Positions 5,479 to 26,052 of a DNA stretch of 47,265 nucleotides are shown one piece after another. The notes under the pieces are model-generated. The model saw only the letters and a program-made list of their open reading frames with translations, made no database searches and was not told where the DNA came from. Made by a program: the position numbers and the translations under genes. Source of the DNA: Candidatus Saccharimonadota bacterium (GTDB lineage: Bacteria; Patescibacteriota; Saccharimonadia; Saccharimonadales; UBA10212); the NCBI GenBank assembly GCA_028288985.1, contig JAQGHE010000051.1, positions 1-47,265 on the forward strand, written 5' to 3'. Positions within the stretch are counted from its first letter, which is position 1. Each line of letters starts with the position of its first letter.

Positions 5479-5714
5479 ATCAGTTTATCAGACGCTTTCT
5501 GAGCTTTAGCTTAAAAATTCCGCATTTATGTGCAGCGCAAGCCGCCGCCGCAATCAGGTGTAGTTTGGATGCAGTGCAAGGAAGATCGGGGCCCCTGCAA
5601 AACCTGTTTTGTGGGGTGGCAAGAAACGAGCAGCGGACCGAGCTGTATTTAAATACTGTGAGGGAGCAGCGGAGTTTCTGACATAGCAATGCGCCAAAAT
5701 ACGTCTGATTATAC

Positions 5715-5825
5715 AAAAAAAGACCCCGAGGGGTCTCTTCTCGCCGGAAGTTCTCTCCGAAGAGAGGACTTCCTCGACGCAGTCATCTCTGACTTTTGCC
5801 GATTGCCACCTCACAGTGGCTAAGT
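5715..5825 (-). ncRNA. Candidate small RNA, copy 1 of a two-member family (unknown function)
   Basis: Lies between the promoter at 5829-5857 and an intrinsic terminator, AGACCCC-UC-GGGGUCU plus a U-run (+ strand 5714-5736). The 5' part, ACUUAGCCACUGUGAGGUGGCA, is identical to copy 2 at 12441-12555. An internal hairpin GGAAGUCCUCUC-UUCG-GAGAGAACUUCC is present. No ORF. Confidence 0.6.
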
Positions 5826-5828
5826 ACC

Positions 5829-5857
5829 AATATAGACCTAAGGCTATTTGCCGTCAA
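5829..5857 (-). promoter_or_regulatory. Sigma70-type promoter of sRNA copy 1 (TTGACG-17 nt-TATATT)
   Basis: Minus strand reads TTGACGgcaaatagccttaggtcTATATTggtactt. Hexamer spacing counted by hand. Confidence 0.6.
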
Positions 5858-5954
5858 CATATTTTTTCGGCAAATTTTCAGTGGAATATGCACATGTTTA
5901 TTTAACAGATAACCCCCTGTGGGTATGCTGTGGAGAAGCCTGTGGATGAGTCAG

Positions 5955-7591: not shown

Positions 7592-8185
7592 ATGATCTTT
7601 CGCATCTTTGGCAGCAAGCCGCTACTGGTGGCAATTGCCGCCATCATCGCTCTCGCAGTGGTAAGCAGCAGCAACGCTGCAACACCGACGTTCGAAGTCG
7701 AACACGGCTTCGTGAAACAGATCAAATGTGTCGACGTCGGCCAGAACACCACCTTCACCATCAGGGCGAAGAACACCAGCGACCACACCGTCGCAGTTCA
7801 CATCTCCCCTAACGGGTTGGGCTTCAGCCCCTGGGCACGGTTCCAGTTGGCTGGTGCGAAGCCCTCCCTGAGGGGCACCGACACGACGATCGGCGAAGGC
7901 GCATTTCAGACGACCATCAAGACCGTCTATTGGGATAAGACTCTCCAGCCCGGTCAGGAGGCGATGTTCCACATCACCCTTCTCGTCACGGACTGGAAGT
8001 CGTTCCCTTACCCGCCGGAGTATCCTGCCCCGGCACTCCCCTACCCCCCGACGTTCGGATACTCCATTCGCGTTGGGGACTACGAAGGAGAGGGATCTTC
8101 CCAGTACCTTTCGGCTACGACCGGCTATTGCGGCGTGGCACTACCGCCGGGTATCGGCGATGTGATGGGCGGCGGAGGCAAGTAG
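7592..8185 (+). CDS. Secreted hypothetical protein (GC3-rich cassette)
   Basis: 197 aa. SD GAAGGAG lies upstream of the ATG. N-terminal signal-like LLVAIAAIIALAVVSSSNA. Third codon positions are mostly G/C, unlike the neighbours. Antisense and alternate-frame ORFs in the track are typical GC-rich shadows. Confidence 0.6.
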   Translation: MIFRIFGSKPLLVAIAAIIALAVVSSSNAATPTFEVEHGFVKQIKCVDVGQNTTFTIRAKNTSDHTVAVHISPNGLGFSPWARFQLAGAKPSLRGTDTTIGEGAFQTTIKTVYWDKTLQPGQEAMFHITLLVTDWKSFPYPPEYPAPALPYPPTFGYSIRVGDYEGEGSSQYLSATTGYCGVALPPGIGDVMGGGGK

Positions 8186-12224: not shown

Positions 12225-12408
12225 AAGCGCCTCTCCTATTGCGCCGAAGTATATTCGCTTTTTGAAAAATTAGCGGTGATAAATTATGCTATTCGGCTGA
12301 GACCCCACTCCAGAAATTAACCACAGGTTCATGCACAGGTTGCCCACAGCCGGTTATCTGTTAAAAACTAACTGTGCATATTTTTATAAAATGCCGGTAT
12401 TTTTATTG

Positions 12409-12437
12409 TTGACCGCACTTACTGTTAAGTCTATATT
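12409..12437 (+). promoter_or_regulatory. Sigma70-type promoter of sRNA copy 2 (TTGACC-17 nt-TATATT)
   Basis: TTGACCgcacttactgttaagtcTATATTggtactt. The -10 and the downstream 30 nt are identical to copy 1. Confidence 0.6.
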
Positions 12438-12440
12438 GGT

Positions 12441-12555
12441 ACTTAGCCACTGTGAGGTGGCAGCAGGGACAACCGGAAACGATTGTCCCTGGGACAGCCC
12501 TCTCCTCGGAGATGACTGTCAACAAAATAAGACCCTTCGGGGTCTTATTTTGTTT
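12441..12555 (+). ncRNA. Candidate small RNA, copy 2 of a two-member family (unknown function)
   Basis: The 5' part ACUUAGCCACUGUGAGGUGGCA is shared with copy 1. Hairpin CAGGGACAA-CCGGAAACGA-UUGUCCCUG is present, as is the shared GAGAUGACUG. Terminator AAGACCC-UUCG-GGGUCUU plus a U-rich tail (12529-12555). The track ORFs here (12331-12609 +, 12403-12696 -) look spurious. Confidence 0.6.
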
Positions 12556-13004: not shown

Positions 13005-13457
13005 TTGCCCAGACAAGTAAAACCGAAGACCGTCGCCAAAGCACAGGCGGACCTAATCAAGAAGCTGCCGCGTCGCCACAGCAACGGCAAGGTCGGTTCT
13101 CGCGTTCAGAAAGCACGCCTGGATAGAGGCATCTCCCAGCGGGAGCTGGCCTTCCCAGGCTGCAGCTACGCCTACCTCAGCCGCATCGAGCACAACACCC
13201 GTCGGCCTTCGTTGACGGTGCTCGTGAAGCTGGCGATCTTGCTGGACACATCGTTCGCGTACTTGGTCTCCGGCCAAGATGATCAGCGCTGCCTCACCGA
13301 TGAGGAGAGAGAGCAGCTGTTCATGATCCTGGGAGTCTCCAGCAGGCAACTGCCGGCGATCCGGAAAGCCGTCGTCGAGCTGAAAGCCGCTTACGAGCGG
13401 GGAGCTAAGGCGACCATCCTGATGGCTCAAGCCCAGCAACTAATGGGCAAGAGCTGA
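13005..13457 (+). CDS. XRE-family helix-turn-helix transcriptional regulator (GC3-rich cassette)
   Basis: 150 aa, TTG start after SD AGGAGAG. The segment RLDRGISQRELAFPGCSYAYLSRIEHNTRRPSLTVLVKLAILL is an HTH_XRE-type motif. GC-rich third positions. Confidence 0.65.
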   Translation: MPRQVKPKTVAKAQADLIKKLPRRHSNGKVGSRVQKARLDRGISQRELAFPGCSYAYLSRIEHNTRRPSLTVLVKLAILLDTSFAYLVSGQDDQRCLTDEEREQLFMILGVSSRQLPAIRKAVVELKAAYERGAKATILMAQAQQLMGKS

Positions 13458-13958: not shown

Positions 13959-14026
13959 ATGTTAATTTTTTCGCAAAAACAGATTTAAGGCTATCTAAAT
14001 TTTCACCTTTAGCAAAATCAAGGATC

Positions 14027-14286
14027 TACCACCTTGTGCCGACAAGGTGGTGCCAAACTCTGGGCTGTTCTCCTCACTTGATGCATCTGATAGTAAAAAA
14101 CGAGCTTGCCTAAAGATCGCCTCAGTAAACTTGCCGTCGGGCAACTTTATTTCGTTTAACGGGCTTTAGGAAGCCAAGCCCGCTCATTTTTATTACATCA
14201 TCTGCTTCAGGTGAGGCTTCTTTATGCCCAAGGGCCACGCATGTGCTTATTCAGGTGAGGCTATAGATGCCCGGACCCAACACACG
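14027..14286 (+). repeat. Intergenic repeat module R, copy 1 (ends with module S, 14252-14279)
   Basis: Hairpin CCACCTTGT-gccg-ACAAGGTGG (14029-14050), then GTGCCAAACTCTGGGCTGTTC...GATGCATCTGATAGTAAAAAACGAGCTTGCC...CAGGTGAGGCTTCTTTATGCCCAAGGGCC...CAGGTGAGGCTATAGATGCCCGGACCCA. Near-identical to 16371-16599 and to the reverse complement of 25240-25445. Confidence 0.9.
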
Positions 14287-14312: not shown

Positions 14313-15311
14313 ATGACTGAAAGGCTGGAGCAGTTGGATTACACTCAAAAAATGGCAAGATACGGCTACTCTCTTTACTGCGAAGGCAATCACCCGAAGG
14401 ATCTGATCGAACAGGCGGTGATGGCGGAGGATGCCGGCTTTGACTTTCTGGTAATCTCGGACCACTATCATCCATGGCTGCCCAATCAGGAAAACTCCGG
14501 CTTTGCCTGGAGTATTTTAGGGGCGGTTGCCCAGGCTACTACAAAAATAGATCTGGCCACTATGGTTACCTGCCCGATAATGCGCTATCACCCCGCTATC
14601 GTGGCGCAGATGGCGGCAACCATGGCTGTAATAAGCGATGACCGTTTTACTCTGGGGCTGGGAGCGGGCGAGCGCCTGAACGAACACGTAGTCGGCTTGG
14701 GTTGGCCCATGGCCAAAGAGCGCCACTTGATGCTGCGCGAAGCAATAGAAATCATCGCCGATCTGTGGGGCGGGGAGTACGTCACTTACCACGGCGATTA
14801 TTACCAGGTGGATGATGCCAGAATATTCGATCTGCCGGATCAAGAAATTAATACGTTTTTAGCCGCCGGCGGTCCTAGTGCCGCAGCACTGGCGGCCGAG
14901 TTAACTGACGGCATATGCATGACAGAGCCCGATGATAAATTAGTTGAAGTTTATAAAGAGGCTGACGGCGATGCAGACAATATATGGGGGCAGGTAGTCA
15001 TTGGCTGGGACCCCGATGAAAAAACCGCCCTGCAGCATGTTTATGAGCAGTTCCGCTTTGCCGTCGGTGGATGGAAAGTGCAGTCAGAGCTGCCCAACCC
15101 GGCTCATTTCGCCGCGGCTACTAAGAACGTCAAGCCGTACGACCTGGCCAGCTTGATCTCAGCCGGACCGGATGCCAAGAAGCATCTTGATGCTATGGAT
15201 AAATATTTGGACATTGGCGTAGCCAATCTGGCGATCGCTTATCCGGGAGATAAGGTGGAGAGCTTTATGGAATTCTGGGCCGAAAAGCTGCGCCCCAAGT
15301 TGAGGAACTGA
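14313..15311 (+). CDS. Luciferase-like monooxygenase (LLM) class oxidoreductase, F420-dependent G6PDH-family-like
   Basis: 332 aa with AEDAGFDFLVISDHYHPW, RFTLGLGAGERLNEH and GGPSAA blocks, as in TIGR03557-type LLM proteins. Recognised from memory. Confidence 0.6.
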   Translation: MTERLEQLDYTQKMARYGYSLYCEGNHPKDLIEQAVMAEDAGFDFLVISDHYHPWLPNQENSGFAWSILGAVAQATTKIDLATMVTCPIMRYHPAIVAQMAATMAVISDDRFTLGLGAGERLNEHVVGLGWPMAKERHLMLREAIEIIADLWGGEYVTYHGDYYQVDDARIFDLPDQEINTFLAAGGPSAAALAAELTDGICMTEPDDKLVEVYKEADGDADNIWGQVVIGWDPDEKTALQHVYEQFRFAVGGWKVQSELPNPAHFAAATKNVKPYDLASLISAGPDAKKHLDAMDKYLDIGVANLAIAYPGDKVESFMEFWAEKLRPKLRN

Positions 15312-15388: not shown

Positions 15389-15886
15389 CTAGCGGTAGAC
15401 AGAGATGAGCCACTTGGGCTCATCAAACGGCAGATTGTGGGCGGCGCAGAAGCTGCGGGCAGCTTCCACGTCCTCATCGCTGACCGCGAAATTGGCTTCA
15501 CGCGGATTCGATCCGCTCTGCCACCGCGCCGCTTGAACGCTGGACTTGACCGCAATGATGCAGCCTGAGTCTCCGTCTTCGCCTTCGTAGTAGACAGGGA
15601 CGATTCTGATCGGGCACTCCTCCTCGGCCTTTTCTTCGGCGGCTCGATACTGCTCGTAGGCCTCCGTGTTCTTGGCCACCCAATCGTCGAGGGCCTTCAG
15701 TTCGTAGCCGTGGCCAATCTCGTAGGGGATCGGGTCGACAACGCCGGCCAAGTCCTTCAGCCAGTCCTCGAAGGACTTGCTGCGCTCGCCACTCTCTTCG
15801 TAGTCCCAAGGTAGAGACTCGATCTGCTCGGCATCCAGGGCAACCCCGAACGACAAGTTTGCTTGAAGCAATGTACCCACACTCAC
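15389..15886 (-). CDS. Hypothetical acidic protein (GC3-rich cassette)
   Basis: 165-aa ORF. GTG start region preceded by SD GAGGAG. GC-rich third positions. The alternate-frame ORF 15498-15950 is a shadow. Confidence 0.5.
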   Translation of the reverse strand: MSVGTLLQANLSFGVALDAEQIESLPWDYEESGERSKSFEDWLKDLAGVVDPIPYEIGHGYELKALDDWVAKNTEAYEQYRAAEEKAEEECPIRIVPVYYEGEDGDSGCIIAVKSSVQAARWQSGSNPREANFAVSDEDVEAARSFCAAHNLPFDEPKWLISVYR

Positions 15887-15937
15887 TCCTCGGGTCGATG
15901 GAATACCTATTTAATAACATATTTATCCAGCTTTTGC

Positions 15938-16001
15938 TACCTTTTGCCAAAAAGGTAATGCCAAACTCTCAGGCGTCTGCTCACTTGATAGATTAAAAAA
16001 C
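15938..16001 (+). repeat. 5' fragment of module R in a divergent promoter region (palindrome TACCTTTTGCCAAAAAGGTA)
   Basis: Palindrome 15938-15957 followed by ATGCCAAACTCTCAGGCG...CTCACTTGATAG, matching the start of module R. It overlaps the -35 region of the minus-strand promoter TAGCAA-17-TATTAA (15911-15939). Confidence 0.75.
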
Positions 16002-16057
16002 CGACTGTGATTAAAATCACTTAAAATGCTTATGCTGTAGTGCTATATTTAAATCAA

Positions 16058-16342
16058 ATGCCAAAAGAAAAAGTAGGAGCTGCAATTTTCGACGAAGACG
16101 GAGCTGTCGGACAGGGAGATCCTGGTATGGCGCAGATTTTGGGTGTCGAGCTGATAGCGAGCCGCGACACCTTCAAACCCGACAGAACTTTGGCGCCTGT
16201 ATATCTACGTCCCATAGGACGTACCGAACAAGAAGTAATTAACTACGACCACAACCGAGCACGATATTTAACCTGTCGCGTTATTGCAATCGCCGGCTTA
16301 GGTTTCATCGTTGGCGCCGCCCGTACCTCCCGCCGTCGCTAA
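16058..16342 (+). CDS. Hypothetical protein with C-terminal TM segment
   Basis: Track ORF 16040-16342. I prefer the ATG at 16058 (MPKEKVGAAIF...) because a TATATT -10 box sits at 16044-16049, inside the longer ORF. Confidence 0.45.
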   Translation: MPKEKVGAAIFDEDGAVGQGDPGMAQILGVELIASRDTFKPDRTLAPVYLRPIGRTEQEVINYDHNRARYLTCRVIAIAGLGFIVGAARTSRRR

Positions 16343-16370
16343 TCTAATTCTTTCCAAGAACCAATTTTTT

Positions 16371-16599
16371 ACCACCTTTTGCCGAAAAGGTAGTGCCAAG
16401 CTCTGGGCTGTTCGCCTCAGCTTGATGCATCTGATAGTAAAAAACGAGCTTGCCTAAAGATCGCCTCAATAAACTTGCCGTCGGGCAACTTTATTTCGTT
16501 AAACGTGCTTTAGGAAGCCAAGCCCGCTCATTTTATTACATCATCTGCTTCAGGTGAGGCTCCTTTACGCCCAAGGGCCGCAAGTCTCCAAGCCTGAAC
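16371..16599 (+). repeat. Intergenic repeat module R, copy 2
   Basis: Aligns by hand with copy 1 over about 210 nt with roughly a dozen differences. The hairpin carries compensatory changes (CCTTTTgccgAAAAGG versus CCTTGTgccgACAAGG). It ends in CTCCAAGCCTGAAC, abutting the stop of 16599-16940. Confidence 0.9.
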
Positions 16600-16940
16600 T
16601 AAGCTTCTTCTTGAAGATCTTCCAGCTGAATGATTTGCCGCACTGGCGTGGTTCGAAGATCAACCGGCTTATTAGCTGCACCGACACCAACTAACTCCAT
16701 AGACTCGCCGACTATAATTGTTCTAACGCGGCCCGGAGCCAGGATTGCCGCGTCTTCAATAACCTGTTCCTCGATATCTGCATCGGGGCGCTCCAAGGGC
16801 CGCCTGATTACAGTAGACCGTAAGATGCCTTTAATTACGATATGCGCTTCAACGTCGTACTCCGTACCCGATTCTGTGGTCACTCGAACCCTATCACCAG
16901 GGCTCAGCCGTATCTGATCAATTGCTTTTTGACTTTCCAT
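16599..16940 (-). CDS. Hypothetical protein
   Basis: Track ORF 16599-16967. The ATG at 16967 lies inside a TATAAT box (GGCGTATAATGGGG). I prefer the ATG at 16940 (MESQKAIDQ...), which is preceded by GGAG. Confidence 0.5.
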   Translation of the reverse strand: MESQKAIDQIRLSPGDRVRVTTESGTEYDVEAHIVIKGILRSTVIRRPLERPDADIEEQVIEDAAILAPGRVRTIIVGESMELVGVGAANKPVDLRTTPVRQIIQLEDLQEEA

Positions 16941-16971
16941 AGGTACTCCGATATTATTTGCCCCCATTATA

Positions 16972-17069
16972 CGCCTTGCTCAGGCGAGCCCATAGATGCC
17001 CGGACCAAAACTGCAGTCTTCCAGGTGAGACTCCAAGCCTGAACTTGAAATCTGTTTTCCTATTGATGC
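16972..17069 (+). repeat. Composite junction repeat (degenerate module S plus module J)
   Basis: CGCCTTGCTCAGGCGAGCCCATAGATGCCCGGACCA (compare the reverse complement of 26015-26052), then CTCCAAGCCTGAAC...TGTTTTCCTATTGATGC (compare 17781-17821 and the reverse complement of 25150-25204). Confidence 0.85.
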
Positions 17070-17677
17070 ACTGCCGGCTGAGGCTGGTCCAGGTCGCCGA
17101 ACAGACGTTCTTCCCAGTACTGTGCGCCTGTATGGTCGCTCACAGTGGCGACGTACTCGCTTGCATACGATGCAAGGTCTTTGCAGCCTTGGGGTGTGTC
17201 TGGATAAACAGGGGTCAGAGGCACACCTTCGACAACAGTATCATATAAGCAGATGCCCATCTCTTCTTCTGGTACGTCACCGAAAGCGGGCATATATCTT
17301 TCGGCAAAGTAGTCACTCGTGATGTGCGCAGCTTCAATCTCTTCCTCCAACTCAGATATGGTATATCCTCCAGCTTCACGAGAGTCATAAAGAGGTATAT
17401 GGTAGCCATTGGAGTCTTTAGGGTGCTTCCAATTTAGAGGCACTCTGCGAATCTTATAATGGCCGCTTGAACCTTTTTCTTTTCTCGTTATGGAGGCTTT
17501 GGCGTTTTCTAACGCCTCATCAAAATGTGATCCTTTTCCCTTTTGCGTTCCGTTGGCTAGATAGGCTGCCTGCAAAGCTTCGCCATAATCAGCCTTGCCT
17601 ATAGCTAACTTGGCTATCTTCATATGCGCATAAGCGCGGCGCTCGCGAGGATTGGTCGATTCCGGTCCAAAAGCCAT
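17060..17677 (-). CDS. Hypothetical protein
   Basis: Track ORF 17060-17698. The minus strand reads GGTATAATattgctcctAAGGAGttattttATG, so I prefer the ATG at 17677 (MAFGPEST...). The stop codon and last codons lie inside repeat module J. Confidence 0.55.
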   Translation of the reverse strand: MAFGPESTNPRERRAYAHMKIAKLAIGKADYGEALQAAYLANGTQKGKGSHFDEALENAKASITRKEKGSSGHYKIRRVPLNWKHPKDSNGYHIPLYDSREAGGYTISELEEEIEAAHITSDYFAERYMPAFGDVPEEEMGICLYDTVVEGVPLTPVYPDTPQGCKDLASYASEYVATVSDHTGAQYWEERLFGDLDQPQPAVHQ

Positions 17678-17742
17678 AAAATAACTCCTTAGGAGCAATA
17701 TTATACCACCTTTTACACTAGTTTTCTACCCTCCAGACCGTG

Positions 17743-17821
17743 CCCTTCGGTTAGACATGCGTTTGGCCGCGACCTTGCGGCTTCACTCATCCTTCTGTTT
17801 TCCTATTGATGCCCGGACCCA
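17743..17821 (+). repeat. Left 79-nt inverted repeat (IR-L) bracketing the AT-rich core
   Basis: CCCTTCGGTTAGACATGCGTTTGGCCGCGACCTTGCGGCTTCACTCATCCTTCTGTTTTCCTATTGATGCCCGGACCCA. It differs at 6 of 79 positions from the reverse complement of 24296-24375 (hand alignment). Confidence 0.9.
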
Positions 17822-17891
17822 CACTTGTGATGAATGTCATTGTTATTTATCACGCTTACGTATATTATCCGAGCAACAAGAGGGGGTGGGT

Positions 17892-18488
17892 ATGCTTGAT
17901 AGATTTAAGGCATTATCCATCGGCAAGAAAATTGCCGTTGGGGTTGCTTCATTATTTGCGATTGGCATAGTTGGCGGAGCCGTTAATCCAAGTTCCAATT
18001 CTTCAATAAATCAGACTTCAGCTGTTTCCAATCGGAATGGAATAAATACAACTTCTCATACAGCTCAGCCAGTACCCGAAATTAAAGAAGTTACAGAGAC
18101 GCAGTCGATTCCTTTCGAATCAACAACTCAACAAGACCCTTCTTCACCCTCGGGCCAAACATTTATTGCTGTCACCGGATCGAACGGTACAAAAACAGTT
18201 ACCTATAAGGTTACCTACGAAAATGGCGTAGAGAAAAGCCGCGAAAAAGTCTCGGAAACTGTAACTGCTCAGCCAGTCACTCAAATAACCAAAGTCGGCA
18301 CGTATGTTGCTCCGAGCTGCCCGAACGGAACCTATGTAAATACCTATGGCAACACTGTCTGCAGCCCATACAGTGCCCCATCAACACCAGCAGGAGCTAC
18401 AGCTAGATGCGTTGATGGCACATACAGCTTTAGCCAATCACGAAGCGGCACCTGCTCCCACCACGGCGGCGTCGCCACCTGGCTCTAG
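17892..18488 (+). CDS. Membrane-anchored exported protein with G5-like domain and C-terminal DUF3761-like Cys-rich domain
   Basis: Start chosen at ATG 17892 (MLDRFKALSIGKK...) after GAGGGGG. The upstream part of track ORF 17757-18488 runs through the repeat. N-terminal TM. VTYKVTYENGVEKSREKVSETVTAQPVTQITKVGT is G5-like. RCVDGTYSFSQSRSGTCSHHGGVATWL is DUF3761-like. Confidence 0.55.
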   Translation: MLDRFKALSIGKKIAVGVASLFAIGIVGGAVNPSSNSSINQTSAVSNRNGINTTSHTAQPVPEIKEVTETQSIPFESTTQQDPSSPSGQTFIAVTGSNGTKTVTYKVTYENGVEKSREKVSETVTAQPVTQITKVGTYVAPSCPNGTYVNTYGNTVCSPYSAPSTPAGATARCVDGTYSFSQSRSGTCSHHGGVATWL

Positions 18489-18490
18489 TA

Positions 18491-19261
18491 CTAAGCCTCT
18501 GCTGTTGCCGTCTTTCTTTCAGTAACACTTTTTCTTTTTTTTGCTTCATCCAAATGTATTAGGGCTAGGCTGGCGAGGTTTAAATACGCAACTGCTTTTT
18601 CAATAGAATCGATCTCAGTCAACTTGTGCGCCTTCTCATTCCTAAAATTTACTATAGAAAGCCATAGATTAAGCACCCCACATTGAAAATCTTTTTCAGC
18701 CTGTTGAGGATTATTTACATAGTAAAAAATAGGTCTTTCGCCTCCAAATGAATACCTAACCAACGAATCTCCATCCTTTTCCTGCCCACTGGGCTGCTTT
18801 GGATAGCCAGATTTTTTCTTTAGATAATCCAAGGCGCCAATAAAAGCATCGTGAACAGCATTTCTATACATCTTTTTTTCAAAGGCATTTTGGGCAGCTG
18901 AAACTACTAGGGGGTGTAGGGAAGATATAACTTCTGGTGTAAGTTTGCCGGCTTGTTTTTCCAGAGCCCTGGCCTCTATAGGGTCAGACTCGAGTCGCTC
19001 AAACACTTCTAGTATTTCTATACCCCTGCCAATTTCATTTTGCGCTTCCTTGTCTTCTAATTCCTCTAAATTATCGCCAAAACCAATGACACTCACTTCT
19101 CCTATATCGCCAAATTCTTGGACGAGCCTATTCTTTGCACCATAGTTTTTCTCGAGGAGTATTAGAGTAAGGTCTTTCCACTTCCTGAACTCGCTTATCG
19201 CAAAATTCTCCTTGATATTTCTACCATCCTGGATCTGTTGGCGCAATTGTTCCGGACTCAT
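18491..19261 (-). CDS. HEPN-superfamily protein, TIGR02391 (Ymh/Abi-like) C-terminal domain
   Basis: The C-terminal half has LHPLVVSAAQNAFEKKMYRNAVHDAF...DGDSLVRYSF...NFRNEKAH (Rx4H HEPN motif)...AVAYLNLASLALIHLD. Start taken at ATG 19261 (MSPEQL...), one nt after the TAA of the upstream gene. The track start at 19309 would overlap that gene by 47 nt. Confidence 0.6.
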   Translation of the reverse strand: MSPEQLRQQIQDGRNIKENFAISEFRKWKDLTLILLEKNYGAKNRLVQEFGDIGEVSVIGFGDNLEELEDKEAQNEIGRGIEILEVFERLESDPIEARALEKQAGKLTPEVISSLHPLVVSAAQNAFEKKMYRNAVHDAFIGALDYLKKKSGYPKQPSGQEKDGDSLVRYSFGGERPIFYYVNNPQQAEKDFQCGVLNLWLSIVNFRNEKAHKLTEIDSIEKAVAYLNLASLALIHLDEAKKRKSVTERKTATAEA

Positions 19262-19262
19262 T

Positions 19263-19553
19263 TTATCTACACTCCGGGAGATTAAGTAAATTATTCGACC
19301 AACGGCCATCTGTTTGAGTTTGCAAATATTTCGTGCCGGCTGGGCTCACTAATACATAACAGTATGCCTTCTGAGACCCATCGCCCACATAAGCCACTCC
19401 TCTTTTATTTTGCAGAAAATCTACCATGACAGCACGCGAAGCTCTACCATTCTCTCCTGTCTGTTCGTTCCTCCACCCGTAATAGCTTATTGCCTCGTGT
19501 GGATTGTAATGGTTTCCGTAGTCCTTATTTATGCAAATTATTCTAACGGCCAT
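19263..19553 (-). CDS. DUF3892-like small protein
   Basis: 96 aa: MAVRIICINKD...HEAISYYGW...SRAVMVDFLQ..GVAYVG......CYVLVSPAGTKYLQTQTDGRWSNNLLNLPEC. This matches my recollection of the DUF3892 pattern. Translationally coupled to the HEPN gene (TAA-A-ATG). Confidence 0.5.
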   Translation of the reverse strand: MAVRIICINKDYGNHYNPHEAISYYGWRNEQTGENGRASRAVMVDFLQNKRGVAYVGDGSQKAYCYVLVSPAGTKYLQTQTDGRWSNNLLNLPECR

Positions 19554-19813
19554 TTTAATATTCTCCTCAAATTTACTTATACCCTTTTTGAAGTTTTTGT
19601 TTAGAAGAAGACCAGCATCTTGGTGCTGTTTTATCTGTCGTTATAGGGCTTGCAGTCTCTGACTGTAGTGCTCTAGGCCAGATCCACGGCCCAGTGGAGC
19701 TCCGCTTCTAAGAGTGTTGCTTCTCGCTGTTGAAAAATATTTTACAGTTCGCTTATGCTTTTGTCAACCTTATTAGGAAGCTGTTATTTTCTAGTATTGT
19801 TAGGATTCTGTCG

Positions 19814-20680
19814 TCATCCTATTATCTCCAGAGCAGGGCGCACAACTCTCAGTATATTTTCTGATCGATTCTTACTATTTAAATGCAGGGTTGAAAACAG
19901 AAAAAACCCCTTTCCATAAGGTATCTGTATCACGGGAGTGTAGTCGCCTTGAGGACCATCAATGAAACTGCTCTTATGGAATAAATTTACACTGGTATGT
20001 GTTAATTGAATCACGCGAGCGATTCCTTGCTCTAGATCTTTCCCGGAGGCAATTCCTCATACATAATGATTTAGTTTTTGAGTTAGTATCGATTTTAGAA
20101 AAGGTCTCTCCAAAGAATAACCATCTGCAAGCGGTGTTGTATCAATACTTCTTTTCAAGTTCTCGTCGTATGCATAGTAGAAAGGTATGTCAGCTATGTT
20201 GATATACGTGCCCCCGTGTTTTACGTATTCAAAAATATTATTAAGTGATGTGAGCTGCGAAAAGTCCTTCTCGGGATAGTTGCCCCCAAAAGGATTAACT
20301 ATAATGGCATATGCTTTAAATGATCGCTCAGTTTTACTTACTTTATGTCTGATGTTCTTTTGATTCAATATATTACATATTGCTTCTAGGTCTCCATCGA
20401 TCCAAGAGGAATTATTTTCATTAATGACATAAGGGGCGTATATACAGATGCGTCTCAAACGAGCATTCATCTTCCTGATAATCCAGTAGACAGCACTTTT
20501 AAGCCACTCCAATAAACCAACGCCTATCAGGATAAGAATAATAGATAAAAAAATTAGGTAATTTCGATATGCCCATGCCGTTTGATTGTAGAGAGTTGCC
20601 ACTATTCCAAGCAAAGCGCCGGCAAATAAAAGGCTGAGCTCTTTAATCACATGGTATAACTTTTTTATGTCTCCATGCAT
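19814..20680 (-). pseudogene. Membrane-anchored protein of unknown function interrupted by a single in-frame TGA
   Basis: ORF 20057-20680 (207 aa, two N-terminal TM helices) ends ...KLNHYV-TGA (20059-20057). The same frame continues open (GIASGKDLEQGIARVIQLTHTS...) through track ORF 19814-20014, and 20680-20014 is a multiple of 3. Confidence 0.5.
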
Positions 20681-20823
20681 ATCTAAACGAATATTTGCTG
20701 GAGGAGGACTTTTTTGAACAGTTTGGCCTGCTCCAGCTCCTTTTCTGATTAAAATTATACGCCGAACAATAGGAAACTGTTATTTCTGGTTTCTTAGCCG
20801 CGTGACTTACAATATGGATAACT

Positions 20824-23559
20824 ATGCCCTTATCATGGAACGAAATTAGAATTCAAGCTGCTGGATTCGCGGAAAGATGGAAAGATGAGTCTAGCGAAAG
20901 CGCAGAGAAACAAACTTTTTGGAATGAGTTTTTTTCTATATTTGGTATGGATAGGCGCAGTGTGGCACTTTACGAAAAAGCGGTGGATCGTTTCAGTGGA
21001 GCTACGGGCTTTATAGACTTGTTTGTTCCTGGTCAGCTAATTGTTGAGCACAAGAGCGGCAATCAGCCCCTAGACCCAGCCTTTGACCAGGCAGCTGACT
21101 ATGCATTACTTCTTTCGCCCAGTGATCGGCCCCGATATATAATTACATCCAATTTTCACACCTTTCGTCTTTATGACTTAGTTACGGTTTCAAAACAAAA
21201 CGAGTGGACATTTTCCTTAAAGGACTTAGCCAAAAATATTGGTAAATTCGGGTTTATAGCCGGTTACAATAAGCAAGAAGTTTTTGAGGAAGATCCCGTC
21301 AACCGACAGGCTGCCGAGCGTTTAGCTGAGCTGCACGACCAACTCACGGATACCGGCTATAAGGGCCACGATTTGGAAGTACTGCTCGTTAGGCTTCTTT
21401 TCTGTTTATTCGCTGAAGATAGTCATGTTTTTGAAAAAGGAATTTTTCATGATTTTATATACGATCGAACCGATATAGATGGCTCTAATCTTGGAGCCCA
21501 GCTAAATTCACTTTTTGAAGTATTAAACACACCAAAGGAAAAACGCCAATCAAATTTGGATGAAACTTTAGCAGCCTTCCCATATGTTAACGGCAAGTTG
21601 TTTACTGAAAGAATCGCGCCCGCCAGCTTTGACCATAAGATGAGAGATAGAATATTAAATGCAGCGCATGACATAAATTGGAGCGAGATTAGTCCGGCTA
21701 TTTTTGGTGCTATGTTTCAGGGCGTAATAGATCCTAAAATCAGAAGACACCTCGGAGCTCACTATACAAGCGAGCAAAACATCATAAAAGTTATTAAGCC
21801 TCTTTTTTTGGATGCATTGTGGGAGGAATTTAATAAGGCTAAGGACTATAGGCCCCAATTGAACGAATTCCACGACAAACTAGGGAGTCTAACATTCATG
21901 GACCCAGCCTGTGGTTGCGGCAATTTTTTAGTCGTTACTTATCGAGAATTAAGGAAACTTGAACTAGAAGTTTTAAAAACAAAGTACTCTATTCCGGGCT
22001 TAGATATGAAAGAGATGGAGCTAGATTTATCTACTGTCACAAGGTGCAATGTGGATCAGTTCTATGGCCTTGAAATAGAAGAATTCCCGGCGCAAATAGC
22101 ACAGGTCGCTTTATGGCTAACCGATATGCAAATGAATAATGAGGCGGCCGACTATTTTGGCAAACCACTGCTCAGATTGCCTTTAACTCAATCTCCTACA
22201 ATCGTGCAGGGGGACGCGTTAACTACAGACTGGGAAGAACTGATTGAACCGAGTAAGCTATCTTATCTTCTCGGGAATCCTCCATATGCTGGCTATAAAC
22301 TCCAAGATGCTGATCAGAAAATTGCACTTTCTAAATATACCGATTCTATTGAGGGAGGCGGAATTTTAGATTTTGTATGTGGGTGGTTTTTGAAAGCAGC
22401 CAAGTATACAGAAGGTACTACAATTATGAGTGCTTTTGTTGCTACGAACTCAATCGTACAGGGCGAACACGTTACGCCACTGTGGCGTACTTTATTTAAT
22501 AAAGGTATCCACATTAATTTCGCCCACCAAACATTTAAGTGGAGCAATGAAGGAAGAGGAAGCGCGGGAGTTCATTGTGTAATCGTTGGCTTTAGCTATG
22601 TAGAAAAAGAACAAGTGAGTCTTTTTGAATACATATCTGCCTCGGGAGATCCTCATGAACTTATAGTAAATCACATAAATGGATACCTCCTCCCGGGGGA
22701 AGATATATTTATAGAAAAACGCAGTAAGCCATTTCGGACTTGGCCTGCCATTAACTACGGCAATGAACCTAGAGAAGGCAATTTTCTGATTTTTGACTCA
22801 GAAGATAGTAAGAATTCTTTCATAGACATGGAACCTCTCTCTGAAAAATTTATAAGACGATTCATGAGTGCCGAGGACTTCATAAATAGAACTGGTCGCT
22901 GGTGCTTATGGTTGGTAGACGCTTCACCAGGTCAGCTCCGAGAGATGCCGCATGTACTTAATAAACTTAGGGAAGTTAGAGATTTTCGTAAAGAATCAAA
23001 ACAAAAAGCTGCCCATTCGGCGGCTAGCACACCATCTCTATTCGTTTCTATCAGACAGCCAGATAAAGACTACCTCCTGATCCCTATAGTTTCTTCCGAG
23101 AATCGTCGTTATATACCAGTTGGTTGGGTTGACAAAGATGTGATTGCAAGCAATGCGGTCTTTACCTCAATGGAAGCTTCACTTTTCCACTTCGGCGTCT
23201 TAATAAGCGAAATGCACATGACATGGATGCGTCATATATGCGGTAGATTGGAAAGTCGTTATAGATATTCAAATACAATTGTTTACAATACCTTTCCTTG
23301 GCCTAACTGCAACGAAGAAGAGCAAGAAAATATAGCGAACCTTGGGAAAAAAGTGCTTGACGCTCGGAATGAGTATCCTGGAGATTCTTTGGCAGAAATG
23401 TATGATCCACTAACCATGCAACCAACCCTTCAAAAAGCTCATCAAGCATTAGACGCCGCTGTTGATGAACTATACAGAAAAGAGAAATTTACGACCGACT
23501 CAGAACGAATGCAGTTGCTTTTAGCCCTTTACAAGGGATTGGCTAACATAGAGGGGTAA
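20824..23559 (+). CDS. MmeI-like type IIL (IIG/IIS) bifunctional restriction endonuclease / N6-adenine DNA methyltransferase
   Basis: 911 aa. The N-terminal FIDLFVPGQLIVEHKS is a D-x(n)-ExK nuclease motif. FMDPACGCGNFLV is SAM motif I and LLGNPPYAG is catalytic motif IV (NPPY). A long C-terminal target-recognition region follows. Size and order match MmeI-family enzymes. Confidence 0.8.
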   Translation: MPLSWNEIRIQAAGFAERWKDESSESAEKQTFWNEFFSIFGMDRRSVALYEKAVDRFSGATGFIDLFVPGQLIVEHKSGNQPLDPAFDQAADYALLLSPSDRPRYIITSNFHTFRLYDLVTVSKQNEWTFSLKDLAKNIGKFGFIAGYNKQEVFEEDPVNRQAAERLAELHDQLTDTGYKGHDLEVLLVRLLFCLFAEDSHVFEKGIFHDFIYDRTDIDGSNLGAQLNSLFEVLNTPKEKRQSNLDETLAAFPYVNGKLFTERIAPASFDHKMRDRILNAAHDINWSEISPAIFGAMFQGVIDPKIRRHLGAHYTSEQNIIKVIKPLFLDALWEEFNKAKDYRPQLNEFHDKLGSLTFMDPACGCGNFLVVTYRELRKLELEVLKTKYSIPGLDMKEMELDLSTVTRCNVDQFYGLEIEEFPAQIAQVALWLTDMQMNNEAADYFGKPLLRLPLTQSPTIVQGDALTTDWEELIEPSKLSYLLGNPPYAGYKLQDADQKIALSKYTDSIEGGGILDFVCGWFLKAAKYTEGTTIMSAFVATNSIVQGEHVTPLWRTLFNKGIHINFAHQTFKWSNEGRGSAGVHCVIVGFSYVEKEQVSLFEYISASGDPHELIVNHINGYLLPGEDIFIEKRSKPFRTWPAINYGNEPREGNFLIFDSEDSKNSFIDMEPLSEKFIRRFMSAEDFINRTGRWCLWLVDASPGQLREMPHVLNKLREVRDFRKESKQKAAHSAASTPSLFVSIRQPDKDYLLIPIVSSENRRYIPVGWVDKDVIASNAVFTSMEASLFHFGVLISEMHMTWMRHICGRLESRYRYSNTIVYNTFPWPNCNEEEQENIANLGKKVLDARNEYPGDSLAEMYDPLTMQPTLQKAHQALDAAVDELYRKEKFTTDSERMQLLLALYKGLANIEG

Positions 23560-23585
23560 ATTATATCCTTGAGGAGTTCAGTGTG

Positions 23586-23885
23586 TCAGGGATTAACTTT
23601 GAATACTCCTGCTGGGTCATTAGCTGGAGGCACCTGCACAGTACGAATCTGAGAAGGATGATAGTACCCATCTCTGTATAGTGCGTTATTGAAGTGTTGC
23701 TGGTCTAAGATGATGGCTGTTGCTCCAAGTACCATACTGACAAGAGTAATCGCTACGATTATCAAAATGGAATATACAAGTATCTCATTTCGCAAAAACC
23801 TGTCTTGCGTATTTTTGTCTAACTGTTCAAAAGTAATAGTGCCGTTATCAAGAGTGGGCACTCGTATAGAAGCTTCGTCACTCAT
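23586..23885 (-). CDS. Hypothetical small single-pass membrane protein
   Basis: 99 aa with a central TM (ILVYSILIIVAITLVSMVLGATAIIL). Its ATG overlaps the end of the upstream ORF (ATGAGTGA, 8-nt overlap). Confidence 0.5.
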   Translation of the reverse strand: MSDEASIRVPTLDNGTITFEQLDKNTQDRFLRNEILVYSILIIVAITLVSMVLGATAIILDQQHFNNALYRDGYYHPSQIRTVQVPPANDPAGVFKVNP

Positions 23886-24105
23886 TATATATTCCAGTGA
23901 TTACGCTTGGCGCACCGCCAGGTTGTTCTTCAACCTCCAGGTCCCTCCCGTAATACTGGAATAAATCGAAGCCACTAAATAGTACGCCCTTGCTGTAGCT
24001 AGTTTCAGGACTAAGAACTACACCGGCAATCTTGATTGGTTTTTTAGGCCTAATACTGCCGTCAGGGTTTAGCTGAAATAAATCCCAGAATTTTATTCGT
24101 GCCAT
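23878..24105 (-). CDS. Hypothetical small soluble protein, first gene of a two-gene operon
   Basis: 75-aa ORF. Translationally coupled to 23586-23885. No family recognised. Confidence 0.45.
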   Translation of the reverse strand: MARIKFWDLFQLNPDGSIRPKKPIKIAGVVLSPETSYSKGVLFSGFDLFQYYGRDLEVEEQPGGAPSVITGIYNE

Positions 24106-24295
24106 TTTCTCATTTTTATTTTAGCATTAGTAGCTGGTTTCATTATAACTCCTCTATAAGCTTAAGCAATACAATTATCCTAATAAGAAATAACCATAAT
24201 CGAGTTATTCAAGCCTTGGTTGATCTCAAGCATAGTTAAATTCTACATAGTGTGGTTGATGTTTCAGGCTGGGGTTGCCTGAACAAGGCGTGTTT

Positions 24296-24375
24296 TGGGT
24301 CCGGGCATCAATAGGAAAACAGAAGGATGAGTGAAGCTGGCAAGATGACGGCCAAACGCATGTCTAACCAAAGGG
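24296..24375 (-). repeat. Right 79-nt inverted repeat (IR-R) bracketing the AT-rich core
   Basis: The reverse complement reads CCCTTTGGTTAGACATGCGTTTGGCCGTCATCTTGCCAGCTTCACTCATCCTTCTGTTTTCCTATTGATGCCCGGACCCA, matching 17743-17821. Confidence 0.9.
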
Positions 24376-24442
24376 CGATCGGATTGGTCCACTTGCCAGC
24401 AAGCGAATCCTATCTGCTTTTTCCGTCTGCCCGGCGGTGGGT

Positions 24443-24509
24443 GCTACCTTGCCGCCCAAGGTAGCAAAAATTATCTGAGCTTGGTAATACCTTTTCGGCA
24501 AAAGGTATT
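24443..24509. repeat. Two palindromic hairpins of the TACCTT...AAGGTA family
   Basis: GCTACCTTG-ccgc-CCAAGGTAGC (24443-24465) and AATACCTTTTCGGCAAAAGGTATT (24486-24509). Confidence 0.8.
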
Positions 24510-24556
24510 AAAATTTTTGATTCGGAGGTTAACAGTGTGGTCGAGCCCTGGGGCTA

Positions 24557-24585
24557 TTGATTTTTGGAAAGATTTATGTTATTAT
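24557..24585 (+). promoter_or_regulatory. Promoter TTGATT-17 nt-TATTAT (TGn extended -10) upstream of 24704-25075
   Basis: Hexamers and spacing counted by hand. It would give a leader of about 110 nt containing two GGACCCGAATCCCG direct repeats. Confidence 0.5.
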
Positions 24586-24703
24586 ATCGATGGTTCGTTG
24601 ACAACTTGCAGAGGTGACTCCTAAGGACCCGAATCCCGGCTTAAAAGAACCGGAACAGTGGACCCGAATCCCGCTCATCCCGAGCGGAACAGAGAGGAGC
24701 ATC

Positions 24704-25075
24704 ATGGTTAAAGTATTCTATAAGTGCATCAACAACGGCGTAGTGGCCATTGTCGACGAGGCGATCTACAACCTCATCGAGGAGTACGGGCGGCTGCCGG
24801 AGAACCTCCGTGCGGTCACCCTTTACCCGACGCCGATCTTCACGTTTGTGGAGGCGGACTTCCTGGACCACACGACCTACCACGGGTACGTCACCGGCAG
24901 CACCGAGCTGATGGACGCCCTTCTGCGCAACGCAATCGTCGTGGAACGGAACTTCTACGTCCCGTTCAGCAACTGCAGCCACATCAACGGCGACACCGCG
25001 GAGCTGCGCTACCGCACCACTCTCGACGACGCCGTTGGTGCCTTCGGCTTGCTGGAGGCGCTGCTGCCCGTCTAA
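24704..25075 (+). CDS. Hypothetical protein (GC3-rich cassette)
   Basis: Start chosen at ATG 24704 (MVKVFYKCINNG...), preceded by GAGAGGAG. The track ORF starts at 24614. Overlapping ORFs 24641-25099 (-) and 24724-25212 (+) are GC-rich shadows. Confidence 0.5.
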   Translation: MVKVFYKCINNGVVAIVDEAIYNLIEEYGRLPENLRAVTLYPTPIFTFVEADFLDHTTYHGYVTGSTELMDALLRNAIVVERNFYVPFSNCSHINGDTAELRYRTTLDDAVGAFGLLEALLPV

Positions 25076-25149: not shown

Positions 25150-25204
25150 AGGCCCGGGCATCAATATGAAACGGTTTGCTTAATTTCAGGCTTGGAGGGT
25201 TGCC
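25150..25204 (-). repeat. Module J copy (reverse orientation)
   Basis: The reverse complement reads GGCAACCCTCCAAGCCTGAAATTAAGCAAACCGTTTCATATTGATGCCCGGGCC, paralleling 17031-17069. Confidence 0.8.
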
Positions 25205-25239
25205 TTAAATAGTAGTTGGTAGTTAGCAGATGGTAGCTG

Positions 25240-25445
25240 GTGTGTTTTGGGCATAAAGGAGCCTCACCTGAGCAGATGATGTAACAAAAGTAGCGGCTTT
25301 GAGTTCCTGAAGCTGTCTGACGAATAAAGTTGCCTGCGGCAAGTTTATGAGGAGTTCTTCAGGCAAGCTACTTTTTTATCATCAGATGCATCAAGCTGAA
25401 GCGAACAGCCCAGAGTTTGGCACTACCTTGTCGGCACAAGGTGGT
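25240..25445 (-). repeat. Intergenic repeat module R, copy 3 (reverse orientation)
   Basis: The reverse complement reads ACCACCTTGTGCCGACAAGGTAGTGCCAAACTCTGGGCTGTTCGCTTCAGCTTGATGCATCTGATGATAAAAAAGTAGCTTGCC...CTCAGGTGAGGCTCCTTTATGCCCAAAACACA. It is more diverged than copies 1 and 2. Confidence 0.85.
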
Positions 25446-25451
25446 AAAAAT

Positions 25452-25892
25452 TTATTGCTGGTACAGCAACAATTCCTGCGTCCGGGTCAGCGGCATCAAT
25501 ATATGGTGGCCTATTCGCTGGTACAGCGCCGTTCCCTGATCAAGATCCTCGGCAGAAGCCAGCCTGGCAAAGGGAACCCCATAGCGACGCCTATACAATA
25601 AATTACTCTTTTTTACCCCTACGCTCAGTAAAGTACCCATAACTGTGTGCTCTTCGTAATCGCCCTGACTATCCGTGAGGTGCTTTAGATCATCGGTACC
25701 GGGTATGATCTCGCCTTCAGCTGACAGACGGGGCTGCCAATAATAGCCAGCGAAGACGGCTGTTTGATATTCTTTCCCGCTGTACAAGTAGTTGACTAAC
25801 GAACACCAGTTCTCGTCAACATTTTCCGGAATCGGCAGCATCTCCTGCGGAGCAAGCTGCGGCACGATATCCCATTTAGGTAATTCAGACAT
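25452..25892 (-). CDS. Hypothetical protein
   Basis: 146-aa ORF (MSELPKWDIVPQ...). The ATG lies 8 nt downstream of a TATACT box, so the mRNA is probably leaderless. Confidence 0.5.
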   Translation of the reverse strand: MSELPKWDIVPQLAPQEMLPIPENVDENWCSLVNYLYSGKEYQTAVFAGYYWQPRLSAEGEIIPGTDDLKHLTDSQGDYEEHTVMGTLLSVGVKKSNLLYRRRYGVPFARLASAEDLDQGTALYQRIGHHILMPLTRTQELLLYQQ

Positions 25893-25930: not shown

Positions 25931-25981
25931 TGCGGCATGGTAGGTGGTAGTTAGCAGATGGTAGATGGTAGGTGGTAGCTG

Positions 25982-26052
25982 GTGTGTTTTGGGCATAAAG
26001 AAGCCTCACCGTTATGGGTCCGGGCATCTATAGCCTCACCTGAGCAAGCGCG
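25982..26052 (-). repeat. Outermost right junction repeat (module S plus the R tail, reverse orientation)
   Basis: The reverse complement reads CGCGCTTGCTCAGGTGAGGCTATAGATGCCCGGACCCATAACGGTGAGGCTTCTTTATGCCCAAAACACAC. These are the same two sub-modules as 14207-14286 but in swapped order. Confidence 0.85.

Follow-up and report, generated by a model that had tools for sequence, protein, structure and literature searches.

The stretch of DNA analysed here, called the window throughout, comprises all 47,265 nucleotides of contig JAQGHE010000051.1 (assembly GCA_028288985.1) from a Candidatus Saccharimonadota bacterium. It is a fragment of a bacterial chromosome carrying the atp operon, zwf, rarA, and cshA, and it contains an AT-rich block of ~6.5 kb that encodes a restriction-modification (RM) enzyme of the MmeI family together with other putative defence genes and is bracketed by a pair of inverted repeats, IR-L and IR-R. 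The block sits inside a patch, from 14.0 to 26.05 kb, of an otherwise ordinary chromosome. We read it (~17.8 or 18.5 to 24.3 kb) as a horizontally acquired, RM-centred defence islet in a hypervariable patch of 12 kb, and its "terminal" repeats as the innermost pair of a local repeat family rather than as transposon ends, an interpretation to which we assign a probability of roughly 0.6.

Genes and boundaries of the AT-rich block

The leftmost gene between the repeats encodes a protein of 198 amino acids (aa) with G5 and DUF3761 domains and an N-terminal membrane anchor (17892–18488, plus strand; Pfam scores of 80 and 79.6 bits). It is followed by genes for a 256-aa Ymh/TIGR02391 HEPN protein with an RNEKAH (Rx4H) motif (18491–19261, minus strand; PF09509 at 53 bits, cut-off 25) and a 96-aa DUF3892 protein (19263–19553, minus strand; PF13031 at 43.7 bits), by a membrane-protein pseudogene of ~288 aa (19814–20680, minus strand), and by the gene for a 911-aa MmeI-family type IIL/IIG RM enzyme (20824–23559, plus strand), recognized by Pfam, PADLOC, and its motifs. 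The right end holds a pair of orphan genes for a 75-aa soluble protein (23878–24105, minus strand), which is the first gene of the pair, and a 99-aa single-pass membrane protein (23586–23885, minus strand), which overlaps it by 8 nt. A first-pass annotation, made from the sequence alone, had arrived at the same gene calls, with which Pfam and PADLOC agree for the G5/DUF3761, DUF3892, HEPN, and MmeI proteins.

That annotation had also described an AT-rich interior at 18.5–24.2 kb and called the segment compositionally foreign, and both descriptions are borne out. A two-change-point likelihood scan delimited a block at 18510–24260 with 40.5% GC versus 51.7% in the rest of the contig (a gain of 127 in log-likelihood, lnL), and GC content at third codon positions (GC3) is 0.34–0.42 in all eight enclosed reading frames and about 0.55–0.65 in the housekeeping genes. 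The 2-lnL support ranges run from 17820 to 18530 on the left and from 24240 to 24610 on the right. A discontinuity at the repeats had been proposed as a check; the right edge falls at IR-R, and at IR-L the edge is not sharp, the best change-point, at 18510, lying at the 3' end of the G5/DUF3761 gene. GC3 is low already from 16.0 kb (0.45–0.47 in the three genes at 16040–17698, left of IR-L), and is 0.87 in the gene to the right of IR-R, which encodes a 123-aa protein. The G5/DUF3761 gene has a GC3 of 0.41, and its membership of the acquired block is ambiguous; its start is most likely at 17892, not within IR-L.

IR-L (80 nt; 17742–17821, minus strand) lies in the divergent intergenic region between a 205-aa flank gene and the G5/DUF3761 gene, and IR-R (81 nt; 24296–24376, plus strand) in that separating the 75-aa gene from the 123-aa flank gene. 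A repeat search of the window returned a perfect 42-nt inverted arm (17780–17821 and 24296–24337) with an adjoining inverted arm of 37 nt at 89%, and blastn of the window against itself aligned 17742–17821 with 24296–24376 over 81 columns at 92.6% identity (75/81; E 6e-21), a match beyond chance. The near-identical long inverted repeats first noticed by eye are thus real, and so is the internal clustering of most of their differences: a global alignment (80 versus 81 nt) has five mismatches and one indel, of which four mismatches and the indel are concentrated in GCGACCTTG-CGG versus GTCATCTTGCCAG. In the segment 17768–17785 versus 24332–24350, the IR-R form is an imperfect hairpin and the IR-L form a perfect 5-bp stem, GCCGC-GACCTT-GCGGC; the cluster of arm differences is of the pattern expected of template-switch correction of a quasi-palindrome.

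Not itself palindromic, the 81-nt repeat shows no significant fold against shuffled sequences (z −0.87 and +0.25 for IR-L, +0.68 and +1.0 for IR-R). A structured RNA or an attC-like site is ruled out by this fold, no better than that of the shuffles, and a promoter element by the unequal distances to the promoter-like site of each flank gene (~14 nt vs ~180 nt). Both copies also lie outside the likely promoters of the inner genes. No target-site duplication was found, as no direct k-mer of at least 4 nt is shared within 12 nt outside either repeat end. The absence of a mobility gene, remarked on in the first pass, extends beyond the block: the open reading frames scanned (nearly all those of at least 140 aa, and smaller ones between 12.6 and 29.2 kb) contain no recombinase or transposase domain and none of the resolvase/invertase or tyrosine recombinase type, and the window contains no tRNA or tmRNA as a possible integration site.

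The two mechanisms first suggested for a segment bounded in this way, a mobile and an invertible element, find no support in these results, given the lack of a target-site duplication and of an invertase or transposase on the contig, and the soft left edge. If the block were invertible or exchangeable, site-specific or RecA-dependent recombination over the 42-nt stretch would flip all 6.5 kb, and a perfect inverted repeat of this length does suffice for occasional homologous inversion. The window also resembles known invertible segments (Gin/Hin/Cin, shufflons, and hsdS inversion loci) in having inverted repeats around an RM-adjacent segment. It differs from them in that there is no invertase on the contig and the repeats, which have no hairpin or crossover-site features, are not in genes or promoters; since both lie outside the inner promoters, inversion would alter no reading frame or obvious promoter–gene connection and would have no evident effect on any product. 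We consider inversion very improbable.

A local family of repeats between 14.0 and 26.05 kb

The patch that surrounds the block consists of orphan genes of mixed origin, split by local mosaic non-coding repeats. The repeat set comprises a GGTCCGGGCATC core, extended in variable ways, as well as short modules and a palindromic element of 205–230 nt that resembles a miniature inverted-repeat transposable element (MITE). Repeats occupy most of the intergenic gaps between 14.0 and 26.05 kb, and none of the modules was found in the remaining 35 kb of the contig, despite the intergenic DNA there.

A pattern search of the window for the core, GGTCCGGGCATC[A/T]ATAG, found six copies where 0.04 are expected. 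Three are on the minus strand (14260, 16989, and 17802) and three on the plus strand (24298, 25151, and 26017). Two of the six belong to IR-L (GGTCCGGGCATCAATAGG; 17802–17819, minus strand) and IR-R (24298–24315, plus strand). The other four stand in other sequence contexts: c1 (GGTCCGGGCATCTATAGC + CCTCACCTGA; 14245–14279, minus strand) directly beside a copy of the palindromic element, c2 (16971–17021, minus strand) between the 205-aa gene and a 122-aa gene, c5 (25151–25171, plus strand) downstream of the 123-aa gene and its terminator, and c6 (26015–26049, plus strand), which is 94% identical to the reverse complement of c1 and makes with it the outermost inverted pair. An exact 19-nt fragment of the repeat (GCATCAATAGGAAAACAGA; 17051–17069, minus strand) overlaps the stop codon of the 205-aa gene.

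The palindromic element, which we call R230, forms a second repeat family. Its three copies, with mutual identities of 84–91%, are R230_A (14007–14236, plus strand), R230_B (16350–16579, plus strand; 90.9% identical to R230_A), and, on the opposite strand, R230_C (25247–25466, minus strand), and partial copies lie at 15925–16025, 24477–24513, and 25987–26010. Either strand of R230 folds into a long hairpin (z about −4.5; 0/200 shuffles as good), with five compensatory pair changes among the three copies, and in a small hairpin within it, ACCTTGTGCCGACAAGGT, double changes (G>T / C>A) preserve the pairing. R230 has no match in Rfam, which gave nothing at the gathering threshold for the window and nothing at E ≤ 1 for 13.9–26.2 kb. 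Being short, non-coding, present in several copies, and able to form a long hairpin, R230 has the features by which MITEs are recognized; it looks like a MITE, or possibly like a structured RNA or a terminator cassette. Further short modules (TTCAGGCTTGGAG, GCCTCACCTGAGCA, GTGTGTTTTGGGCAT, and a GGTAG-rich stretch) are combined in varying orders; GGTAG-rich near-heptad stretches (TAGTTGGTAGTTAGCAGATGGTAGCTGGTG) occur at 25210–25240 and 25938–25980, before two of the repeat units and on the right side only.

All left-side copies lie on one strand and all right-side copies on the other, and the outward order is alike on both sides: the 81-nt repeat, a gene (205 or 123 aa), core/M4 with module M1, and R230. 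At least three inverted pairs are nested in this way, IR-L and IR-R innermost and, outside them, 16350–16574 with 25247–25466 (225 nt, 84%) and 14245–14279 with 26015–26049 (35 nt, 94%); at 92.6% identity, IR-L and IR-R are no more alike than other pairs of the family (90.9% and 94%). They face each other because each stands on the upstream side of an outward-pointing flank gene (205 aa, minus strand; 123 aa, plus strand). With the core at four further sites and two nested pairs around IR-L and IR-R, the earlier view of the repeats as the island's own ends is not supported. Occurrence at unrelated places, which had been named as a point that would count against that view, is seen in the window for the core and the 19-nt piece, and not for the full 81-nt repeat, which is present only twice. 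Replication-direction polarity as the cause of the mirror pattern was ruled out, there being no GC-skew switch across the region.

The mirror arrangement is what would be left by a segmental inverted duplication, a large palindrome with the island at its centre and the repeats as leftover arms. All modules are mirror-oriented, and their outward order (IR, gene, core/M4 + M1, R230) is similar on the two sides, as such a remnant would have it, but the genes at matching positions in either arm are unrelated (BLASTP returned nothing with E < 0.1) while the non-coding modules around them are 84–100% identical. Since coding DNA should survive at least as long as non-coding DNA, the repeats would have to postdate the genes between them, to have been homogenised, or to be mobile; the contrast thus argues against an old segmental duplication, which we regard as quite unlikely, and favours young, mobile, or homogenised repeats.

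It is also conceivable, if unlikely, that the block is a non-autonomous mobile or composite island, with the 81-nt repeats as its working ends (the end sequence considered was GCCCTTYGGTTAGAC) and a transposase encoded elsewhere in the genome. The repeats are long, highly similar, and at or near the compositional boundaries; the lack of an internal mobility gene is what a non-autonomous element would show; and the MITE-like R230 implies mobilising machinery that is active or was so recently. Against this stand the missing target-site duplication, the core in four other sites and contexts and the overlap of part of the repeat with the 3' end of a gene, the nested inverted pairs of the same family around IR-L and IR-R, the low GC3 already to the left of IR-L, and the lack of a second copy or an empty site in any collection searched. 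Within those collections, the 19-nt core pattern had one hit among GTDB species representatives and two in JGI metagenomes, none with extended similarity and all attributable to chance, and two repeat patterns had no hit in IMG/VR. The same features set the block apart from transposons with long terminal inverted repeats and from composite or trans-mobilised elements, which it matches in having inverted repeats around cargo without an internal transposase: the IR pair would pass for terminal inverted repeats by length and identity (81 nt, 92.6%), but no target duplication is present, the core is common to nearby sites, and no second copy or empty site is known.

The repeat family itself is reminiscent of bacterial interspersed mosaic elements (BIMEs), repetitive extragenic palindromic (REP) sequences, and MITEs, with which it shares reshuffled short modules, intergenic location, palindromic members (R230), and lack of coding capacity. 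It differs from these in that the window has no visible transposase, including REP-associated tyrosine transposases (RAYTs), and in that, within the visible 47 kb, the copies are clustered in a 12-kb patch and mirror-oriented.

A separate inverted pair, unrelated to the island repeats, lies at 5713–5945 and 12321–12553 (238 nt, 72% identical). One arm is just downstream of cshA and the other upstream of a gene with a bactofilin domain, and the latter arm contains a 34-nt palindrome of its own (12521–12554).

Putative defence genes and their relatives

The MmeI-like protein carries five MmeI Pfam domains in order and far above their cut-offs (PF20464, PF20465, PF20473, PF20466, and PF20467), in keeping with the architecture that we took to define the family, namely an N-terminal nuclease, a helical spacer, a gamma-class N6-adenine methyltransferase, a target recognition domain, and a C-terminal domain in one chain. 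PADLOC assigns it to REase_MTase_IIG (1158 bits over residues 3–907), and it has the motifs D65-x9-E75-H-K77 (PD-ExK), DPACGCG at 360 (motif I, S-adenosylmethionine binding), and NPPY at 485 (motif IV); judged by its sequence, the enzyme is apparently intact. It shares with other type IIL (IIG) enzymes of the MmeI family the single chain, the five domains, the PD-ExK-type motif, motif I, and NPPY, resembles thousands of family members over its full length, and differs in being 64% identical to its nearest relative, so that a recognition sequence could hardly be predicted from the comparison. MmeI-type enzymes cleave at a distance of ~20 nt from their asymmetric site and methylate one strand to protect the host (PMC2731913, PMC4833311).

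At least 7,999 relatives of this enzyme were found at E < 1e-100. The nearest are 56–64% identical and lie on contigs of 38–47% GC, and those with a name come from metagenome-assembled genomes of Parcubacteria and Saccharimonadales, both of the candidate phyla radiation (CPR). The neighbours of the near relatives are other defence genes, namely a DpnII-type RM system, a KAP NTPase with a QueC-like gene, and SocA/Panacea with DUF2188. Linkage of the other block genes to MmeI-like genes, proposed as a check on the island, was not observed, since none of the window neighbours occurs beside the four closest homologues looked up.

The abrupt change in composition, the metagenome-type assembly with no close relative, and the location of the nearest MmeI homologues on 38–47% GC contigs, in low-GC CPR genomes, could also be taken to mean that the block belongs to another organism and was joined to the contig in assembly through a shared repeat. 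For this to happen, however, the second organism would have had to carry the same lineage-specific 81-nt repeat at both junctions, and the repeat is in no other collection searched, its family being otherwise confined to the flanks of this contig. AT-rich, horizontally acquired RM genes are, moreover, a common situation. We consider an artefact of this kind exceedingly improbable.

The HEPN protein is a predicted RNase effector, with a further, weak PADLOC match to PD-Lambda-3_B, and the DUF3892 protein is its predicted sensor or partner. The TAA stop of the DUF3892 gene is followed after 1 nt by the start of the HEPN gene (TAAaATG), the ATG of which is preceded by a GGAG ribosome-binding site; from these signals the HEPN start is most likely at 19261, one base past the DUF3892 stop. 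DUF3892 has been treated as a predicted sensor domain of defence systems (10.1101/2022.04.27.489752, PMC12419801), and these sources trace the sensor-plus-effector prediction to Burroughs and Aravind. An operonic arrangement with an effector is found here, by virtue of the 1-nt spacing to the HEPN gene. The tight coupling is real in the window; its conservation is unsupported by other loci. The single sequence relative found for the Ymh-HEPN protein (45% identity, with RNEKAH invariant) has no DUF3892 gene upstream, plasmid genes of TIGR02391 lie among KAP NTPase, Abi/reverse-transcriptase, and Pycsar genes without DUF3892, and plasmid DUF3892 genes lie beside ImmA/IrrE and ThiF-type genes or alone.

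Ymh-HEPN proteins have been reported "in operon with R-M", likened to PrrC and RloC, and predicted to act as a PrrC-like second line of defence (PMC3710099). As in the RM-linked HEPN nucleases (PrrC with EcoprrI, and RloC; PMC3710099), the Ymh HEPN protein of the window, with its Rx4H motif, shares an islet with an RM enzyme. It differs in lying near the RM gene only, neither embedded in nor co-transcribed with an RM operon: its gene belongs to a separate unit on the minus strand, with a promoter-like site of its own, ~1.5 kb from the MmeI gene and with the pseudogene between. It also lacks an ATPase/paraMORC or AbiJ-type N-terminal domain and is preceded by DUF3892.

The membrane-protein gene is interrupted by an in-frame TGA at 20057–20059, after codon 207. 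A HMMER scan found about 310 related clusters at 50% identity, with full-length members of 275–330 aa. Homology to the closest relatives extends beyond the TGA as far as the C-terminus, and in the closest one aligned this codon reads Leu (TTA to TGA is a single step), in agreement with the interruption noted in the first pass. Judged by the alignment, the gene is a recent nonsense pseudogene or else needs read-through; an alternative genetic code in the donor is ruled out by the absence of in-frame TGA codons from the 911-aa MmeI gene and the other island genes. The family has no Pfam or PADLOC model, its larger fusion proteins contain no informative Pfam domain, and no member was found in viral contigs. 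The predicted structure of one relative, P0151 (predicted local distance difference test, pLDDT, 91.7), has an N-terminal helical hairpin anchor (four helices, residues 4–71) and a GATase1/ThuA-like domain resembling the trimerisation domain of GH42 glycosidases (Foldseek E 4e-7, with a template modelling score of only ~0.4); the model would indicate a fold class, not a function.

The genomic contexts of four relatives were fetched, of which one (L014) is too short to judge; a distant homologue on an archaeal plasmid is not RM-linked. In all three informative loci the gene is linked to RM genes, with start and stop codons that abut or overlap, as would be expected if the suggested association with RM genes were genuine. 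In L016 (4285–5124) it stands between hsdS and hsdR in a type I RM operon that begins with hsdM and two small genes, in L013 (6001–6861) it follows a type I hsdR and an N6_Mtase–Methylase_S fusion and precedes a 241-aa protein, and in L015 (2412–3263) it lies in the same operon as an Eco57I/TaqI_C type IIG gene, downstream of that gene and of one for a 202-aa membrane protein. The 241-aa gene of L013 (6858–7583), which overlaps the end of the membrane gene, carries an RNERSH motif akin to the RNEKAH of the window HEPN protein. Its identification as a HEPN protein was rejected, since the motif alone aligns, with an hhalign probability of 0.2 and no PDB hit, and we mention it as a lead only. Together, the intact MmeI-family enzyme, the Ymh-HEPN and DUF3892 proteins, and the RM-linked membrane family support the defence character first ascribed to the block.

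Flanking genes and the nature of the islet

The 205-aa gene (17060–17677, minus strand), directly downstream of IR-L, belongs to a rare family of which we found 18 relatives, all metagenomic. In longer contigs these relatives are associated with mobile elements, adjoining large serine recombinases, DUF5681, a small terminase subunit, and a phage-type integrase, and those contigs have nothing else in common with the window. An AlphaFold model of the protein (pLDDT 72.9) matched no fold in the PDB. One database protein, P0014 (234 aa, from an ENA contig of 2430 nt), joins a fragment of a type I RM specificity protein (Methylase_S) to a stretch matching the 77 C-terminal residues of the 205-aa family at 56% identity, which hints at recombination between this family and hsdS loci. 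On the other side, the 123-aa orphan gene (24704–25075, plus strand), downstream of IR-R, is marked as foreign by its GC3 of 0.87, and as coming from a source other than the island's.

GC3 ranges from 0.45 to 0.87 in the accessory flank genes. Small genes of high GC3 (0.75–0.87) lie at 24704–25075, 15389–15886, 13005–13457, and 7592–8185, and the presence of such genes within a few hundred bases of the low-GC island argues that the patch has gathered DNA from several donors, a high-GC source among them. Genes at 15.4–17.7 and 24.7–28.2 kb have no Pfam or PHROG family. The orphans as a set (75, 99, 100, 122, 123, 132, 146, 165, and 205 aa) match no PHROG and no Pfam model at E ≤ 0.001, nor, leaving aside the 100-aa protein, did a relaxed Pfam cut-off of E 5 return anything convincing; the 75-, 99-, 123-, and 205-aa proteins had no Pfam hit at E ≤ 0.01 and no PADLOC hit, and the 75- and 99-aa proteins no tblastn hit in plasmids.

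The lineage is very poorly sampled. At 90% identity, each of 18 window proteins (those of atpA, zwf, rarA, and cshA among them) forms a cluster of its own among 15 billion proteins, apart from two short JGI fragments that match the F420 oxidoreductase (14313–15311) and AtpD. No record was returned when the MmeI and F420-oxidoreductase proteins were looked up by exact sequence.

Several observations weigh against the interpretation of the block as an acquired islet within a local repeat family. On the right, the compositional edge (24240–24610) falls at IR-R, and on the left the support range extends just far enough, to 17820, to touch IR-L. The full 81-nt repeat is present only twice in the window, and elsewhere just the core and the 19-nt piece recur, so a specific tie between this repeat and the island may exist. 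Dispersal of the repeats is seen locally, within 47 kb, rather than genome-wide, and dispersed repeats alone leave the strict mirror orientation of all modules unexplained. On the side of the genes, the DUF3892–HEPN pairing recurs in 0/7 other loci (L007, three plasmid TIGR02391 loci, and three plasmid DUF3892 loci), and the RM link of the membrane family is based on three loci. Finally, the part that the repeats play in recombination is one that we infer.

If the block is an acquired islet, its repeats would act as portable homology, and the DNA between them could be gained, lost, or swapped by recombination without a dedicated transposase. The single-chain MmeI-type enzyme would provide first-line restriction, by analogy with what is known of the family (PMC2731913, PMC4833311). 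DUF3892 and HEPN may form a second-line abortive-infection module in which DUF3892 senses or restrains and the HEPN RNase executes, a role proposed by analogy with PrrC and RloC and from the published prediction for Ymh-HEPN (PMC3710099). The membrane protein would be a former RM accessory, switched off by its nonsense codon.

Two linked and more speculative readings go further, and we hold them to be tentative at best and probably not correct as they stand. In one, the repeat patch may be a recombinase-independent "cassette scaffold", in which upstream modules (the core or the 81-nt repeat) and downstream modules (M1 and R230) frame interchangeable orphan genes, and the defence islet may have been dropped between two head-to-head units. 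In the other, the membrane protein may serve N6-adenine RM systems as an accessory or a backup effector that has gone unrecognised; its gene is followed by an RNExxH protein in L013 and by DUF3892–HEPN in the window. In integron cassette arrays, too, conserved non-coding modules frame each of a set of small, unrelated genes of mixed composition, but the window has no integrase, its 81-nt repeat has neither attC-like folding (z −0.9 to +1.0) nor paired core sites, and its units are in both orientations. Promoter and stem-loop "regulatory cassettes" are said to flank hypervariable phage genes, where small unrelated genes are again framed by conserved non-coding modules; we note this likeness as a lead only.

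In kind the islet is ordinary, a further case of an RM-centred islet acquired horizontally into a variable region of a chromosome, and it illustrates that an island may be framed by tidy inverted repeats that are not its own ends. The membrane family is a candidate new RM accessory or abortive-infection component. The cassette scaffold, if true, would be a repeat-guided gene-exchange platform, and to our knowledge no platform of such a kind has been described for bacterial chromosomes. If the mirror-symmetric scaffold were found genome-wide, it would offer a handle on how accessory genes are shuffled without visible recombinases in an unsampled lineage.

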